Source: Planctomycetota bacterium (GTDB lineage Bacteria > Planctomycetota > JAJSAM01 > JAJVHW01). From it: a stretch of 64,000 nt of DNA. The DNA lies in NCBI GenBank assembly GCA_965248445.1, contig CBDFJG010000004.1:1600001-1664000 (forward strand), given 5' to 3'. Both the position numbers and the translations under genes were made by a program. Positions within the stretch are counted from its first letter, which is position 1. Each line of letters opens with the position of its first letter. This document shows, one piece after another, positions 8,318 through 39,242 of this stretch. The notes under the pieces were generated by a model that did not search any database, was not told the DNA's origin, and saw only the letters and a program-made list of their open reading frames with translations.

Positions 8318-11300
8318 CTAGCCTGATGCCCCGCGCGTTCGCCGCGCGACCGCCTGCCGAACGAATCGCCCGACGTCCGCGAGCAATTGCTCACGGGTGT
8401 TGCCGGACTTCTGCAGGATCTCTTGCACGGAGCCCTTGAGGCGCCTCCCGTCCGCGTCGGTGATGTCCTTCGCGGTCACCACGATCAGAGGCAGCTCCCT
8501 CCAGCGCGCGTCCGCGCGGACCGCCTCGACGAACTGGAAACCGTCCATCACCGGCATCATCAGGTCGAGCACGACGAGGTCGGCACCGTCTTCGTCGAGC
8601 CGGACGAGACCCTCCACGCCATTCGCGGCCTCGCTGATCTGCCATCCCTCGCCGCGCAGGAGTCGCACGACCATCTCGCGTGTCGTCTCGTCGTCCTCGA
8701 CGACCAGGATGCGGTGCTCGGCGCGGTTGATCTGATACGGCGCGAGCACGCCGAGCAGCGTGGCGCGGTCGACCGGCTTGGTCAGATACGCATCCACGCC
8801 CAGGGCGAGCCCGAGTCCGCGCTCTTGCACCATCGTGAGCATGACGATCGGGATGTCGGACAGCTCCGCGTCACGTCGCGCCGCGGAGAGCACCGCCCAG
8901 CCGTCCATGCCCGGCATCATGACGTCGAGGATGATCGCCGTCGGACGCAACTCCCGCGCGATGCGCAGACCGTCGCGACCGTTCGTGGCCTCGACGACCA
9001 CGAAACCCTCGCGCACGAGGTACCGCCGGACCATTTCGCGCGCGTCCGGGTCGTCGTCGATCACGAGGACCGTCGTGTGCGACGCGTCGTGCGCCGCGGC
9101 TCCGTCCGCCGGAGCGTCTGTGGCGTCCAGCGCCGCGGGCGCGTCCCGTGCCGGCAGGCGCACCGTGAACGATGTGCCCTCGCCCGGAGTGCTCGAGACT
9201 TCGATCGTGCCGGACAGCATCTCGACGAATCGCCGCGTAATCGTCAGCCCGAGACCGGTGCCTCCGTACCGCCGCGTGGTGGAGGCATCGGCTTGCGCGA
9301 ACGCGTCCCAGATCGCGGCCGATTGCTCGGCGGCCATGCCGATGCCGTCGTCGATCACCTGCAGCGTCATCCAGTCGTGCGGCTCGCCGCTCTCGCGGTG
9401 CGCCAGCAGACGGATGGTGCCGTACTTCGTGAACTTCGCAGCGTTGGAAATCAGGTTCAGCAGGATCTGCCGCAACTTGGTCATGTCCGAGTGCACCCTG
9501 CCCATGCCCACAGGGACCTCCAGCACGAGCGAGCTCTCGTTCTTCGCGATCAGCGGGTGCACTGTCTCCACGACGTCGGCGAGGGCCTGGTTCAGGTCGA
9601 ACGCCTCGTTGAACACCTCGAGGCGCCCGGCCTCGATCTTCGAGAGATCGAGGATGTCGTCGATCAGGCCGAGCAGATCGAAGCCGGCACCGCGGATCTT
9701 GCCGAGGTCCGAGACGACCTCGCTCTCGCCCCGCTCTTCTATGTCTTCGGCGACCATTTCCGCGTACCCGATGATCGCGTTCAGCGGAGTGCGCAACTCG
9801 TGGCTCATGTTGGCGAGGAACTGGCTCTTCGCGCGGCTGGCGGTCTCCGCCGTGTCCTTGGCCGTCTCGAGAGCCTCCCGCGCCTCGTGCCGCTGCGTCA
9901 CGTCGCGCAACACGCCGACGAATCTCTGCGAATCGGTGTCCCGGATCTCGGTGAGCGCAAGTGCCAGTGGGAACTCGGTCCCGTCGGCCCGCAACCCGTG
10001 CAACTCGACGCGCGATCCGATTACGTGCGGTTCGCGAGTCTCCACGAACCGCCGGAGTGACTCGGTGTGGAGAGTCCGGTAGCACTCTGGCACCAAGATG
10101 GTCAAATCCTGTCCCACCATGTCTTTCGCGCTGCGGCCGAAGATCTCCTCCGCGGCCGGATTGACGGACTCGATCACGCCGTTTGTGCCGGCGGTGATGA
10201 TCCCGTCCGCGACGCTCGTGACGATCGAGCGGACCTTCTCCTCACTGCGCGCGAGGGAGTGTGTGGTCTCGCGCAGACTGTCGGCCGAACGGGCGAACGC
10301 CTGCGAGATCAGGTATCCGACGAGTGCGGCGAGCAGCGCTCCGCAGATGCCGACGGCGAGTGTCCAGTCCGCGAGCCGGCGCAGCGGTGCAAACACGGTC
10401 TCTGTCGGTTGGTTGAGAATCAGCAACCAGCCATGCGCCGGCCGCCCGCGTCGCGTCCGTGATCGCACGAACGCACGCAAGATCTCGCCCTGCGGGGTCG
10501 GCTCGACGACCGTTCCCTGCTTGGCCGACATCAGCGCCGCGACGACGGCTTGCTCGCTGACGTCCTCGCCGAACGCGTTTGCGTCGCCCTGCCGATGGAT
10601 CAGGTGTCCGTTCGCGTCGATGAGTTCTACCGTTGCGTCACCGAGCCGGCTGCGCGTGCTGAAGCCATCGACGATCTGTCGCAGCACGGCGACGTTCAGC
10701 ACGGCTTTCATCACGCCGAGCCGCTGCCCTTCGAGGTTGTCCACCCGGACGCCGATGTCGATCGAGTGGACGCCCGCGCTCTCGTCGAATGCGATCTCCT
10801 CAGAGACCCACACGCGATCACGCCACGCTACCCTCCACCACTCCTCGTCGTCCTGGCGGAAGTCGCTGGTGCGCCCGGTCTGCCCGACGTTCGGGCCGAA
10901 CCGGTTGGTCACGAAGATCTCCGCATAAACGGACTCGTTGCGCTCACGCTCGTAGAACTCCAGCGTGCGCTTCAGGATCTGAGAGGCGGCGCTGTCGAAG
11001 ACCGACTGCATGAACTCGCTCGTCTCGTCCTCGGGAGTTGCGCGCCACTCCGCGTCCCGCCCGTCGATGACAGCCTGCACCCTCGGCTCGGGGCCGAGCA
11101 GTGCGTACTCGCGGTTGGACTCGGCGATGGCTGCGTGCAGTTCGGAATCGGTGCCTGCGAATGCGCGGATGGTCCGGACGCGGTCTCTCATCGCGCGCTC
11201 GATCTCATTCATGAGAGACGCTGCCACGGCTTCCGCGTCTCGCGAGATCGCCGCGTGCATTCCGTTCCGCGCGCGGCGGACGATCACGAACCCGGAGACC

Positions 11301-11368
11301 AGGAGGATGAGGATGACGACGGCGTAGCCGAGGAGTAGCAGCGACCTCTCGCGCGTCGGCGTCTTCAT
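8318..11368 (-). CDS. Hybrid sensor histidine kinase (TM-Cache-like-TM-PAS-HisKA-HATPase-REC-REC)
   Basis: FLANMSHELRTPLNAIIG, NLISNAAKFT, DDGIG, GGTGLGL, two receiver domains. Confidence 0.95.
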   Translation of the reverse strand: MKTPTRERSLLLLGYAVVILILLVSGFVIVRRARNGMHAAISRDAEAVAASLMNEIERAMRDRVRTIRAFAGTDSELHAAIAESNREYALLGPEPRVQAVIDGRDAEWRATPEDETSEFMQSVFDSAASQILKRTLEFYERERNESVYAEIFVTNRFGPNVGQTGRTSDFRQDDEEWWRVAWRDRVWVSEEIAFDESAGVHSIDIGVRVDNLEGQRLGVMKAVLNVAVLRQIVDGFSTRSRLGDATVELIDANGHLIHRQGDANAFGEDVSEQAVVAALMSAKQGTVVEPTPQGEILRAFVRSRTRRGRPAHGWLLILNQPTETVFAPLRRLADWTLAVGICGALLAALVGYLISQAFARSADSLRETTHSLARSEEKVRSIVTSVADGIITAGTNGVIESVNPAAEEIFGRSAKDMVGQDLTILVPECYRTLHTESLRRFVETREPHVIGSRVELHGLRADGTEFPLALALTEIRDTDSQRFVGVLRDVTQRHEAREALETAKDTAETASRAKSQFLANMSHELRTPLNAIIGYAEMVAEDIEERGESEVVSDLGKIRGAGFDLLGLIDDILDLSKIEAGRLEVFNEAFDLNQALADVVETVHPLIAKNESSLVLEVPVGMGRVHSDMTKLRQILLNLISNAAKFTKYGTIRLLAHRESGEPHDWMTLQVIDDGIGMAAEQSAAIWDAFAQADASTTRRYGGTGLGLTITRRFVEMLSGTIEVSSTPGEGTSFTVRLPARDAPAALDATDAPADGAAAHDASHTTVLVIDDDPDAREMVRRYLVREGFVVVEATNGRDGLRIARELRPTAIILDVMMPGMDGWAVLSAARRDAELSDIPIVMLTMVQERGLGLALGVDAYLTKPVDRATLLGVLAPYQINRAEHRILVVEDDETTREMVVRLLRGEGWQISEAANGVEGLVRLDEDGADLVVLDLMMPVMDGFQFVEAVRADARWRELPLIVVTAKDITDADGRRLKGSVQEILQKSGNTREQLLADVGRFVRQAVARRTRGASG

Positions 11369-11381
11369 CCGTGCTGTCCCG

Positions 11382-11738
11382 TCACTCCGCTGCCCCGAAC
11401 GCGCGCAGTGCGGCGAGCACGGTCTCGAGCAGGCCGCGTGTCGCCGCCAGGAGCGGCTCGAGCGACGCATCGGGTTTGTCGCGGGCATGCGCCTCGACAC
11501 GCCGGTACTGCGCGGTCAACGCGGTCATCCCCGCAGTGGCGCTGGATCCGCCGGCTCCGTGCGCGAGCCGGAGCACGGTCGCGGCGTCGCCGCGCGCGTA
11601 GGCGTCCTCGATCTCCGCGAGTTCCTCCCACGCGCGTGGCGCGTAGAACTCGGCGAACTCCGGCACGCTCCAGCCGCAGCCCGACGCCACGCTGCGAACC
11701 GTCGTCTCGTCGATGAGGCCGTTGGAGGGACCGGGCAT
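11382..11738 (-). CDS. Hpt phosphotransfer domain protein
   Basis: LAHGAGGSSATAGM Hpt-like motif; lies between REC and kinase genes. Confidence 0.75.
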   Translation of the reverse strand: MPGPSNGLIDETTVRSVASGCGWSVPEFAEFYAPRAWEELAEIEDAYARGDAATVLRLAHGAGGSSATAGMTALTAQYRRVEAHARDKPDASLEPLLAATRGLLETVLAALRAFGAAE

Positions 11739-11755
11739 CTGCTCTCCAGTCGTTC

Positions 11756-12133
11756 CTAGCTTCGACCTTCTGGATGGAGGAGTGCCTCCATCTTCTGAAT
11801 CAGCGCCGCGACGTCGAGCGGTTTCGTCGCGAAGTCGTCACAGCCCGCCTCGAGAGCGGTCTCGCGATCGCCGGCCATCGCATGCGCCGTCAGCGCGATC
11901 ACAGGCAGGTCTCTGGTCGCATCGCCGGCCTTGAGCTGCCGCGTTGCTTCCCAGCCGTCGACGACCGGAAGACTGAGGTCCATGAGGACGAGGTCCGGGC
12001 GCGCCTGTGCGATGGCATCCAGTCCGGCCTGACCGTCGTTCGCCGTGGTGACCTCGTAGCCCGTGCGCTCGAGCCGCCGCGACAGCATGTCGCGGTTCAG
12101 GTCATTGTCTTCCACGATCAGGATCTTCGGCAC
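11756..12133 (-). CDS. Single-domain response regulator (DivK/CheY-like)
   Basis: ILIVEDN, LVLMDLSLP, ALTAHAM, ATKP. Confidence 0.95.
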   Translation of the reverse strand: MPKILIVEDNDLNRDMLSRRLERTGYEVTTANDGQAGLDAIAQARPDLVLMDLSLPVVDGWEATRQLKAGDATRDLPVIALTAHAMAGDRETALEAGCDDFATKPLDVAALIQKMEALLHPEGRS

Positions 12134-12259: not shown

Positions 12260-13369
12260 TCACCAGGCTGCGACGAGCTTACGCCGGGTCGATTCGTCGT
12301 AGCGCTCGGGGAACTTCACGCGCTTACCGGTCAGGTCGCGAAGCGCGTCGTGGACGTGCTTGGCGAGCGCGAGCACGCCGCGCTGCTCCCGCTCGTCGTC
12401 TCCGGGAGGAGGCGGGTACGACTGCACCAGAGCCTCCTTCACGGGGGTCCGCGCCATCTTGTGCCTCTCCGCGATCCAGGCCAGCGCGTCGATGGCGATC
12501 TTTGTCAGCCCGTTACGCCACGCGCCCGTCGCTGCGTGCGGTGCAATCGCGGCGACGGACTCCGCATCGCCACACGCCGCTAGCGCCTTGACAGCATTGA
12601 TCCGCAGCACGTTCGGATTGAGACTCTCCTTCGGCTCCGCGACGACGGCGTCCAGGTGTCGCGCAACACCCGGAGTGGGGGACTCTGCGATCGCGGCGCA
12701 GACCAGGTAACGCAGCGGGTCGTTGGGAATGGCGAGCAGCTCCTCGGCCGCAGAGGAGAGAGCGCCCGGCTCCTCCTCGGCCAGGATCTCGACCGCGCGG
12801 TAGCGAACGACGATGTCGTTGTCGTCGAGCGCCGCGAGCGCGGCCTTCACCGACGGCTTCTCCTCGAGCTGTGCCGCGCGCTCTTCCGCGGCGGCAATCG
12901 CTCCGGCCGATGCGGTGCTCCGGATCTTCCCCACGCGCGCCTTCTTCACGGCGGCGAGGAAGCTCTCGACCGACCGCCCCGTGCTGCCCATGCGCTCGAG
13001 CGTCTCGGGGTGGATCAGCCAGTGCTGGGGGTACGACGTGAACCCGAACCGGATGCACGTGCGCTCCGCGGCGAGATCCCCCTCGTTCTTCGAGAAGTCG
13101 CGGAACACGTAGAGCCAGACCGCTTCGTCGTAGGCGGGCTCCAACTCCTCGCGGGGGAGCAACTGCTCCTCCATGACGACGCAGTGGGGTCAATACGTCT
13201 TCGTCAGGTAGACGAAGATCGGCACCTCGCGTTCGATCGCCTGCTTCTGCGCTGCGGCGAAGTCGCGCACCCACGGCGGTCCCTCGGGAGGCGTCTCGCT
13301 GCCTGCCATCGCGGTTACGAGCACGAGGCACGGCACCGCCAGGATCGTGAGCAGTCGCGACAGCCGCAT
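12260..13369 (-). CDS. Putative selenoprotein: secreted thioredoxin-fold (UPHC) plus HEAT-like repeats, 369 aa, Sec60
   Basis: Track ORFs 13190..13390 and 12260..13174 are in frame, joined by TAT TGA CCC CAC TGC GTC GTC ATG (Y-U-P-H-C-V-V-M); signal peptide, GGGAGG RBS, downstream hairpin. Confidence 0.88.
13153..13172 (-). promoter_or_regulatory. Putative SECIS hairpin (GGAGGAGC-AGUU-GCUCCCCC)
   Basis: 7 of 8 stem positions pair; AGUU loop begins 25 nt after the UGA. Confidence 0.75.
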
Positions 13370-13404
13370 GGTGGGTTCCTCCCGCGGCAAGTCTACGGGC
13401 TGAC

Positions 13405-14565
13405 TCAGTCCTGGATCTCCACGCTCTTCTCGACGTACTTCCCGCCGCTCAGCGTGTTGTTCGCCTCGACGTCGTTGGACTTCTCGTCGGTCCCCGCGCC
13501 GCCGTTGACCAGCAGCCCCTTCTCGAACGTGTTGCCGAAGATGTTCACGAAGTCGTCGCCGTCCTGCAGCAATGCCTTGACCTTCTTTGCGGCCGTGCTG
13601 TTGGACATTGCGATCTGGTCGCCGCCGTCTCCGGCCTTGAGTGACGCGCCCTTGGTGAGGGACGTCCCGTTGAAGACGCTGATGGAGTCGACACCGCCGC
13701 CGGTCGAGACCTTGAGCGCACCGCCGACGGTGGCTTCGTCGAAGTTCGTGACGTCGTCGCCGCCTCCGGTCTTGACCTTGACACCCTTCGGAAACTGATC
13801 ACGCGTGGACGTCAGGAACAGACCGCCGTCGCCGCCCGTGATCTTGACGGGCTTGCCGAATGTTGAGTCCTCGATCTGAACGACTTTGCCGCCGTCACCC
13901 GTCTTCATCTTGAAGCTCTTTGCGATTTCGCAACGCGCGATACGGACGTCGTCGCTGCCGTTACCGAGGTCGACGGTCACCTTGCCGTCGCAGTCAACCT
14001 CCTCGAGCGTGACAGAGTTGTTGCCCTCGCCGACGTCGATGACCACGGACTTCCCGACGGTGATGGCCCCGTATCCCATCGCGACCTGGACGATTTCGTT
14101 GCCGGCGCCACCGTTCACGCGGAGTGAGCCGGAGATCGTCGCGTCATAGACCGAGATCACACCGCCGCCGCCGCTGTTGGAGACGGTCAGGTCGTCGAAC
14201 CCTGTGCCCCCGTACCCAACGAAGAAGCTCTCTCCGTCGCCGTCGCCGAGACTGACGTCGACGTCCCCGAGGTCGAGCTCGGCGGAGATGTCGATTGAGT
14301 CGCCACCTCCGCGCATGTCGATGCGAATCCTCCTCTTCGGCAGGGCGAAGTTGAAGGAGCCGTTCTCTCCGTTGACCGTCGTGTTGTTGCCCTTGATCCG
14401 GACGTCAACACCCTCGTTGAAGACTGTGATGCTGTTGGCCTGGTCGTCGCCGGTGATGACGAGGTCCTTCCCCTGCACGTCGACGGTGATGTTCCCGTCG
14501 GCAAGCGCGAGCGGGGCCAGGATGAGGCATGCCAGGAGTGTGGTAGTGCGTGTGTTGGTCTTCAT
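13405..14565 (-). CDS. Secreted repetitive beta-helix-like protein
   Basis: Signal peptide; recurring GxGxD-x-V/I units. Confidence 0.8.
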   Translation of the reverse strand: MKTNTRTTTLLACLILAPLALADGNITVDVQGKDLVITGDDQANSITVFNEGVDVRIKGNNTTVNGENGSFNFALPKRRIRIDMRGGGDSIDISAELDLGDVDVSLGDGDGESFFVGYGGTGFDDLTVSNSGGGGVISVYDATISGSLRVNGGAGNEIVQVAMGYGAITVGKSVVIDVGEGNNSVTLEEVDCDGKVTVDLGNGSDDVRIARCEIAKSFKMKTGDGGKVVQIEDSTFGKPVKITGGDGGLFLTSTRDQFPKGVKVKTGGGDDVTNFDEATVGGALKVSTGGGVDSISVFNGTSLTKGASLKAGDGGDQIAMSNSTAAKKVKALLQDGDDFVNIFGNTFEKGLLVNGGAGTDEKSNDVEANNTLSGGKYVEKSVEIQD

Positions 14566-38368: not shown

Positions 38369-38647
38369 CTAGCTGTCGTCTGACAGCTCGGTCAGCACTT
38401 CGTTCGTTCCGGTCACGCTGCGCCGCCCGTTGACGAACAGCACGAGATGCGGCACGCCGCCGATTCCGTGCTGCTTGGCGATGGGAGCCCGCTTCGGATC
38501 GCGAATCACGATCTTGCGCAGGTAGACGTCGTCGTGCTCTCTCGCGTGAGCCTCCAACTGAGGCTTCAACTCCCGGCAGGCGGGTCACCAGTCGGCTACG
38601 TACGCGAACACGGTCCGCCCGTGCGGCACCGCGCACGAGTCGAGCAC
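38369..38647 (-). CDS. Putative selenoprotein thioredoxin (ADW-U-PAC); 5' end uncertain, possibly truncated
   Basis: GCC GAC TGG TGA CCC GCC TGC CGG in frame with track ORF 38369..38569 (GIGGVPHLVLF cis-Pro motif); first in-frame GTG at 38647, no in-frame ATG. Confidence 0.75.
38549..38565 (-). promoter_or_regulatory. Putative SECIS hairpin (AGCCUC-AGUUG-GAGGCU)
   Basis: 6-bp stem; loop begins 25 nt after the UGA. Confidence 0.72.
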
Positions 38648-38805
38648 GAGAGCCTCGCCCTTGCTGATGGTCGCGACGGCGGCGCGGCTGGCCGGGTCCG
38701 CGTCACGACACTCTGCCCGAAGAGGCCGAGGCGCTCGCGACAGTGCTGCGCACGCGTCCCTTGCCGGCCACCGTCGAACTCGTTTCAGAGAGGTAGGGAC
38801 ACACG

Positions 38806-39242
38806 ATGCCGCGACGCGAGTATCGGGCTAGTGACGGCGACAGCGTGCTTGGCGTCGAGTGGTCAGGAAAGTGGGAGGACGTCCGGGTGACGCTCGACGG
38901 GGCGGAGATCGGGCAGATCTCCACGGAGCGCGAACTCGACCGCGGGAAGTCGTTCGAGACCCCATCCGGCGGGAGCGTGCGCGTCAAACTCCTGCGCGGT
39001 ATCGCCGCGAGGGACTTCGAGGTGCGCCTCGACGGGCGGTTGGCCGAGGGCTCGCCCAGCGACGCCGGCTCGCTGGTCAAGCTCTGCGGTGTCGATACGG
39101 CAGCATCAGCGTCAAGGAGATCCTGGTTCATGTCCCGGTGATCGGGCTGTTCACACTAGGCTTCACGGCGATATCGAAGTTGAAGGCGAAACCGGATACG
39201 GCGGCGGCCCGTAGGCGCCGGCGCCGCACCCGACGAACGTAG
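38806..39242 (+). pseudogene. Probable internally deleted or frameshifted hypothetical gene
   Basis: Plausible N-terminal domain (38806-39141) with a hydrophobic tail VPVIGLFTLGFTAISKLK in another frame. Confidence 0.45.

Follow-up and report, generated by a model that had tools for sequence, protein, structure and literature searches.

Does the in-frame TGA of a planctomycete gene for a predicted secreted thioredoxin with HEAT repeats encode selenocysteine, and which role could the resulting protein play in the cell envelope? The gene lies in a 64,000-nt stretch of DNA (the window), to whose positions all coordinates refer unless a genome or contig is named; G000 denotes the window's own genome. 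Translation of the minus strand from 13369 to 12260 yields a single 369-codon frame with one internal TGA, which confirms that the two open reading frames joined in an earlier note on this DNA form one reading frame. The internal TGA (13192-13190) is codon 60, its surroundings reading PIFVYLTKTY-U-PHC, and the terminal stop (12262-12260) is also TGA. According to translation, Pfam and a structural model, the whole gene (12260..13369, minus strand, as are all features of the gene described below) encodes a signal peptide, a thioredoxin domain with the motif U60-P-H-C63 and HEAT/alphaRep repeats. Direct reading of the sequence also reveals a Shine-Dalgarno-like GGGAGGAA (13376..13383) 5' of the ATG. 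A scan for sigma-70 promoters and terminators at the gene found nothing.

A sequencing slip can be ruled out, as contigs from the runs X1 and X3 span the stretch with identical letters and a contig from run X4, identical except for one single-base gap at 13007, has the same TGA. All three runs come from one sample, which is probably the source of the window DNA.

Conservation of the TGA and a covarying hairpin

Altogether, 69 loci including that of the own genome were examined, and 64 of these cover position 60. TGA is found in 61 of the 64 (a number that includes the own genome and five duplicates or near-duplicates), TGT in two and a frameshift in one, and the conserved TGA spans 12 families within the phylum. 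Of the 401 genomes of a phylum-wide sample, 29 contain a match to the thioredoxin-HEAT family; 28 of these carry the TGA, and the site is deleted in the remaining one (G005). In the G005 locus (L028, 1228-1830), two in-frame internal deletions have taken out a single repeat, the active site and the greater part of the thioredoxin domain; the locus represents either a pseudogene or an assembly collapse.

The machinery for selenocysteine insertion is in place: the own genome contains selA, selB and tRNA-Sec along with selD, which itself has a TGA. Among the other carrier genomes selA is present in 28/28 (27 above the cut-off), compared with 288/401 in the phylum sample, and selB in 25/28; considering the kinship among the genomes and the high selA background, we take this as supporting evidence only. 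TGA is also the commonest true stop in the own genome (1717 of 2715 training ORFs) and terminates this very gene, which indicates that the codon is recoded at this site and that the genetic code as such is unchanged.

Automated annotation has systematically missed the active site, an error corrected here. In the public protein collection, 96 of 115 matches, one of them the window's own protein, start just after the active-site motif and are labelled "HEAT repeat" or "hypothetical"; 14 are full-length proteins with C-P-H-C, and five start later still. The named matches belong to Planctomycetota, with the cysteine forms named from Phycisphaeraceae and Gemmataceae MAGs, and the thioredoxin-HEAT family is widespread in uncultured planctomycetes. 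The cysteine in these homologs stands exactly at codon 60 (13190..13192), in agreement with the earlier proposal that the TGA occupies the N-terminal redox cysteine of the motif.

The second line of evidence is a bSECIS-like hairpin, GG-A-GGAGC-AGUU-GCUCC-CC (13154..13172), identified by folding and covariation. It consists of a 5-bp core plus two further pairs, with the AGUU loop 25 nt past the UGA and a G at loop position 2, and it fits the bacterial SECIS model as given in PMC13188914. The predicted fold energy is -22.1 kcal/mol over 63 nt, and the single-sequence z-score is modest (-1.4 to -2.5 for folds of 50-83 nt, -0.3 for 103 nt). In an alignment of 55 distinct TGA loci, pairing is seen in 90.5% of the cells, all slid registers are worse and the covariation score was reached by 0 of 500 shuffles, bearing in mind that related sequences may beat shuffles without any structure. 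RNAalifold recovers the same five-pair stem unaided, and pair 25-36 alternates between A-U (23 loci), G-C (22) and C-G (4). At the codon level this appears as a coupling of residue 68 with Leu71: AAG68 occurs together with CTT71 in 21 of 22 loci and GAG68 together with CTC71 in 19 of 21. In addition, the codon for Leu70 is TTG in 48/55 loci, and both CTT (3.5%) and TTG (5.9%) are rarely used for leucine in this genome. Such a coupling of rare codons is hard to explain without an RNA structure. The (E/K)QLL peptide encoded over the hairpin is retained in the selenocysteine forms and drifts in the cysteine forms. The family offers an unusually clean case of SECIS covariation, where the hairpin fixes an amino acid as well as a rare codon.

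Based on these data, we are almost certain that this is a real selenoprotein gene in which UGA60 encodes selenocysteine. The homologs display what the earlier note had anticipated, either a conserved TGA or C-P-H-C, together with the covarying hairpin, and its refuting case, a TGA in this genome alone and no conserved hairpin, is excluded. A nonsense mutation, a true split into two genes or a TGA read as tryptophan is very improbable: gene callers do report a separate "HEAT repeat" ORF of 300-304 aa for the downstream part, but this ORF has no signal peptide and begins inside the thioredoxin fold, the TGA is kept across the 12 families with a covarying hairpin, and a tryptophan reading conflicts with the use of TGA as the predominant stop, including at the end of the same gene.

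Architecture, cysteine forms and known families

The first 22 residues (13304..13369) form a predicted cleavable signal peptide ending in A-M-A and followed by a conserved GSETPP; this segment has a low pLDDT in the model, and the assignment, which agrees with the earlier note, relies on the sequence with its hydrophobic core. Of 61 loci tested for such a core, 59 have it, and the two exceptions are fusions with a DsbD-alpha domain in which the signal lies further upstream.

Residues 29-150 (12920..13285) constitute a Thioredoxin_7 domain similar to DsbH and DsbD-gamma, and residues 155-369 (12263..12907) a HEAT_2/alphaRep-like repeat domain. Pfam Thioredoxin_7 (PF13899) matches residues 33-86 with 33.4 bits (cut-off 27); neither PF13098 nor PF00085 scores at E<=0.1. 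The AlphaFold2 model, built from a 92-row alignment, reaches a pLDDT of 93.5 and a pTM of 0.88. Since a Foldseek search with the 369-aa model found no structure at E<=0.001, the fold assignment is based on VIA-align, which superposes residues 29-150 on Chlamydia DsbH (2ju5; Z 13.8, rmsd 2.3, 115 aligned residues), the C-terminal domain of a Bacteroides DsbD-like protein (Z 13.1) and DsbD-gamma (Z 11.2, rmsd 2.8). Pfam and the model agree on the typical features of a thioredoxin fold, with (U/C)xxC at a helix start and a proline loop before the next strand. The latter corresponds to S112-Y113-P114 (13028..13036), a putative cis-proline loop already pointed out before, whose invariant P114 directly precedes strand E115-119 in the model. 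The HEAT-like repeats proposed to follow the thioredoxin domain are likewise borne out: the region consists of tandem two-helix repeats that match the alphaRep and CpcE repeats with Z 14-16 and alphaRep chains in a profile search with E 1.6e-19, although the Pfam HEAT_2 score taken alone (residues 175-248, 24.9 bits) stays below its cut-off of 27.7.

None of the 59 rows covering U/C60 and C63 deviates at either residue, and P61 (1.00) and H62 (0.97) are nearly as strictly kept. Further invariant positions are P114, R107 and R132 as well as D217, N251 and N286, the last three of which lie in conserved loops of the repeat domain (PNDPxR with D217 and R220, SxNPNVLR with N251-R256, NGLT with N286). 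We do not claim a structural disulfide between C224 and C266: the two residues are conserved to 89% and 92%, yet covary weakly.

The cysteine forms appear at several places among the selenocysteine forms in a quick, unrooted tree of 65 rows, built without short fragments and without six loci that were duplicates or nearly identical. Eight changes are counted, of which at least five are forced by well-supported branches, and monophyly of the cysteine forms is rejected (p-AU 0.0002), which shows that one family has switched repeatedly between selenocysteine and cysteine. The nesting in this unrooted tree suggests repeated changes from selenocysteine to cysteine. According to PMC13188914, such changes are rare in bacteria and cysteine homologs usually dominate. 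In the thioredoxin-HEAT family, the opposite ratio is seen with selenocysteine forms outnumbering cysteine forms, and if the repeated changes hold true, this family would also run counter to the rule that such reversion is rare in bacteria. At locus L030 (G030), two related Trx7 genes lie close together, one with a TGA (U-P-P-A) and the other with cysteine at the same position.

When representatives at 50% identity were searched with a profile, 106 proteins were retrieved at E<=1e-30. Distant relatives share the layout either with CxxC (P0233, P0237, P0251, P0252) or without it (P0151, P0191, P0208, P0211, P0217, P0253). The same search uncovered a subclade (P0118, P0126, P0142, P0262, L069, L078) in which a DsbD-alpha domain with a CxxxxC pair is placed N-terminal to the thioredoxin-HEAT unit, giving proteins of 535-587 aa. 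A profile made from 18 DsbD-alpha regions matches solely the four fused proteins of 270 (E<=1.3e-7), Pfam DsbD_N hits one of the fusion proteins with E 0.0028, and DsbD-alpha structures rank first in a Foldseek search with a fusion model (E about 2e-4). Pairwise BLAST with the DsbD-alpha domain of the own genome gives a weak match (E 0.028), and a PDB sequence search with a six-row fusion alignment returned irrelevant kinesin rows alone, so that the alpha assignment is based on the profile, Pfam and Foldseek results. As the fusions form a single clade (4 rows, support 100), all members of which are cysteine forms, we count them as one event. A search for longer fused forms of 689-2000 aa found none, which is weak evidence.

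Is this architecture known? Thioredoxin-HEAT is absent from all 119 family rows in Table 1 of the 2026 catalogue PMC13188914, and the sole match in NCBIfam 20 is NF041199, whose score of 16.8 bits lies below its cut-off of 300; this agrees with the earlier note, in which the architecture was not recognised among the described selenoprotein families. The term "HEAT" is also missing from the accessible text of PMC13188914, BSepDB and deep-Sep and from the BSepDB supplement. We found no published description of a thioredoxin-HEAT selenoprotein in the literature consulted; the BSepDB database, the deep-Sep supplements and Table S9 of PMC4807772 may contain members that are named generically as UxxC thioredoxins. 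The architecture of the protein is uncatalogued, but its class, the UxxC thioredoxin selenoproteins, is well known. With these catalogued proteins it shares the UxxC motif, a bSECIS inside the ORF and cysteine homologs, but HEAT repeats occur in none of their rows. The loosely defined row "Thiol:disulfide interchange protein" with PF13098 and UxxC is linked to the family by precomputed PF13098 matches on some cysteine homologs and is not matched by the window protein. The Trx7/PDZ (seleno)protein NF041199 is comparable in that a Thioredoxin_7-type N-terminal domain with selenocysteine precedes a protein-binding domain; however, it combines CxxU (motif from Table 1 of PMC13188914) with PDZ instead of UxxC with HEAT. 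DsbH (NF043050) and DsbD-gamma are the closest solved thioredoxin domains among the matches listed, but lack both selenocysteine and a HEAT domain and share 14-17% identity; as the NF043050 profile gives no match at E<=1, the likeness to DsbH is one of fold alone.

Candidate functions in the envelope

For the function, we propose the following scenario. SelB and tRNA-Sec would decode UGA60 via the in-frame SECIS hairpin, and the product would be exported to the periplasm by its signal peptide, with the thioredoxin domain packed on the HEAT/alphaRep solenoid. The Sec60-Cys63 selenenylsulfide could be kept reduced by a DsbD relay, in which electrons would pass from cytoplasmic thioredoxin to the beta, then the gamma and then the alpha domain of DsbD and finally to the thioredoxin-HEAT selenoprotein. 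On envelope proteins, the selenolate may attack sulfenic acids as well as disulfides that are wrong or oxidised, Cys63 would resolve the mixed intermediate and the HEAT repeats would bind and hold the client. As a whole, the protein would act like a monomeric reductase-isomerase of the DsbC/DsbG/DsbH type that has its own arm for client binding or chaperoning. Such a DsbD-fed envelope reductase/isomerase with HEAT-mediated client binding is in our opinion moderately probable; export, the direction of electron flow and the role of the repeats are the points we infer. That the protein is an exported Sec-dependent oxidoreductase, as the earlier note had put it, is supported by the data, with the oxidoreductase part deduced from motif and modelled fold.

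Because no conserved neighbourhood exists, the argument for this mechanism has to be indirect. Gene order is not conserved beyond close kin, and the largest clusters comprise four loci and reflect either synteny within a genus or a response regulator of a generic kind. In the window, a co-oriented downstream region (8318-12133, minus strand) encodes a hybrid histidine kinase, an Hpt protein and a response regulator, none of which recurs beside homologs. Upstream (13405-14565, minus strand), a secreted glycine-rich repeat protein has no family match and is not kept beside homologs either.

Information on the direction of electron flow comes from the redox partners. A DsbD/CcdA transmembrane domain is encoded in 28/28 carrier genomes, a feature that is common in bacteria (10/14 control genomes); DsbB was found in 0/28 carriers and not in the own genome, and VKOR in 12/28 carriers (MAGs 82-98% complete). 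Together with the DsbD-alpha fusion, this pattern favours a reductase/isomerase over a DsbA-like oxidase. According to PMC3322552, DsbD is the hub from which periplasmic isomerases and reductases receive electrons, and DsbH, the closest fold, is described in PMC5193440 as helping to maintain a reducing periplasm. The DsbD of the own genome (L125; G000 C1:397665-399623, minus strand) has a complete alpha-beta-gamma arrangement with selenocysteine in gamma (U-I-N-C). Of 31 DsbD loci examined in carriers, the gamma motif was readable in 18, and 14 of these have a TGA there. Besides, one VKOR match (G334:C337:58099-58446) has two internal in-frame TGA codons and could be a selenocysteine-containing VKOR or a broken gene.

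An alternative that we rate as unlikely, if worth keeping in mind, is a detached DsbD-gamma-like shuttle, which would transfer electrons from membrane-bound DsbD/CcdA to soluble DsbD-alpha domains or to envelope peroxidases/Msr and whose HEAT repeats would dock the partner enzyme and not misfolded clients. The fold near DsbD-gamma would suit such a role, and the fusion can equally be read as an alpha domain fed by a gamma-like domain. The own genome also contains several redoxin/AhpC-type selenoprotein candidates and a soluble DsbD-alpha-like protein (C3:1134380), and relays from TlpA to PprX are known (PMC3322552). Against a shuttle speaks the fact that the carriers' DsbD already has a gamma domain in the 18 readable loci and that peroxidase or Msr genes were not seen linked to homologs. 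The soluble DsbD-alpha-like protein (G000 C3, minus-strand ORF with its upstream end at 1134380) stands alone, has a signal peptide and the motif C-N-E-E-Q-C and is in itself a possible soluble electron relay.

About equally unlikely is a DsbA-like oxidase. Such a selenocysteine protein would put disulfides into exported proteins, would regain its oxidised state through VKOR, oxygen or small molecules and would use the HEAT domain in place of the helical insert of DsbA. Here, the near-invariant U/C-P-H-C is the main argument: E. coli DsbA, a protein exported as predicted here, has the same CPHC motif with a potential of -122 mV (PMC5193440), and by analogy the P-H dipeptide points to an oxidase and against the reductive reading. 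The own genome (92% complete) also has VKOR and no PF01323 DsbA match. However, the DsbA partner DsbB is missing in the carriers, VKOR is confined to fewer than half of them and the VKOR of the own genome is already equipped with a CxxC thioredoxin domain. In addition, the fold resembles DsbH and DsbD-gamma with no DsbA among the 50 matches listed, PF01323 does not match the window protein, and the helical insert of E. coli DsbA sits inside the thioredoxin fold, whereas in the model of the window protein the thioredoxin domain (29-150) is uninterrupted and the HEAT repeats come C-terminal to it. As the DsbD-alpha fusion points the opposite way as well, the evidence on redox direction leans to the reductive side.

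The protein could also serve mainly as a chaperone or ligand scaffold, either a chaperedoxin similar to CnoX/YbbN or a metal/cofactor carrier, in which Sec60/Cys63 would shield client thiols or bind metal and turnover would be secondary; we consider this rather improbable. CnoX/YbbN is a cytoplasmic chaperedoxin composed of a thioredoxin and a TPR domain, and weak Foldseek rows recall this layout of a thioredoxin followed by helical repeats. We count the survival of the two-domain layout in distant relatives without CxxC in favour of a scaffold role, both here and in the DsbD-fed scenario above, and the HEAT loops (N251, D217, N286) are conserved equally with the active site. Nevertheless, the active-site pair is invariant in 59/59 covering rows and selenocysteine is costly to keep; the repeats are HEAT and not TPR, the whole-chain superposition on YbbN is poor (rmsd about 21 A), and the window protein has an intact UxxC and is predicted to be exported. 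Finally, a CcmG/ResA-like reductant dedicated to the maturation of apocytochrome c is quite improbable: it would fit an exported thioredoxin on the DsbD side and the CxxCH motifs in 50 of 3689 coding-like ORFs, but no cytochrome-maturation genes were recognised among recurring neighbours and no ResA/CcmG model matched, though other candidates in the genome do match ResA/TlpA models.

A selenoprotein-rich genome

In an all-stop coding-potential scan of the own genome, a cysteine-type redox motif was found at 39/390 TGA, 13/483 TAG and 0/46 TAA sites, and sites picked by eye amount to about 26 candidate selenoproteins (L114-L133 and others). This is a large number, yet below the 46-63 selenoproteins of the richest genomes reported in PMC13326102. 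Pfam models match 17 of 21 scanned candidates, comprising 14 thioredoxin-fold proteins, two CMD/AhpD and one DUF3179. By inspection, most candidates have signal peptides, and the majority appear from their sequences to be exported thioredoxin-fold proteins with differing C-terminal scaffolds, e.g. Trx7-TPR at C4:454098. The others are three AhpD/CMD-type and two DUF3179-type proteins, a deiodinase-like protein and SelD.

It is tempting to speculate, as a tentative idea, that uncultured Planctomycetota run a selenium-based envelope reducing network, in which a DsbD with selenocysteine in gamma would feed about 15 exported selenocysteine thioredoxins, each with a different client-binding scaffold (HEAT here, TPR or other helical repeats in paralogs), and that the thioredoxin-HEAT family would be its periplasmic selenium chaperone-reductase. 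If true, this role would be one that we did not find described for bacterial selenoproteins in the accessible parts of the literature consulted. Apart from this, the data add an uncatalogued family dominated by selenocysteine and point to a selenoprotein-rich envelope redox system in Planctomycetota, a group whose name ("Planctomyc") has 0 occurrences in the text of the 2026 review PMC13188914. Since the chemistry of UxxC thioredoxins is familiar, known biology is widened and not overturned.

Two further candidates differ from the thioredoxin-HEAT gene. The window contains a second one (38369-38827, minus strand; TGA 38587-38585), a small thioredoxin that matches PF00085 with 39.3 bits. Its motif W-U-P-A-C is followed downstream by a hairpin; as no clear start codon lies upstream, it may be 5'-truncated. 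The other (L128; G000 C4:1209867-1211183, plus strand) is an exported protein that matches no Pfam or NCBIfam model and has the motif LLGQLDEEFC-U, which is reminiscent of eukaryotic selenoprotein N.
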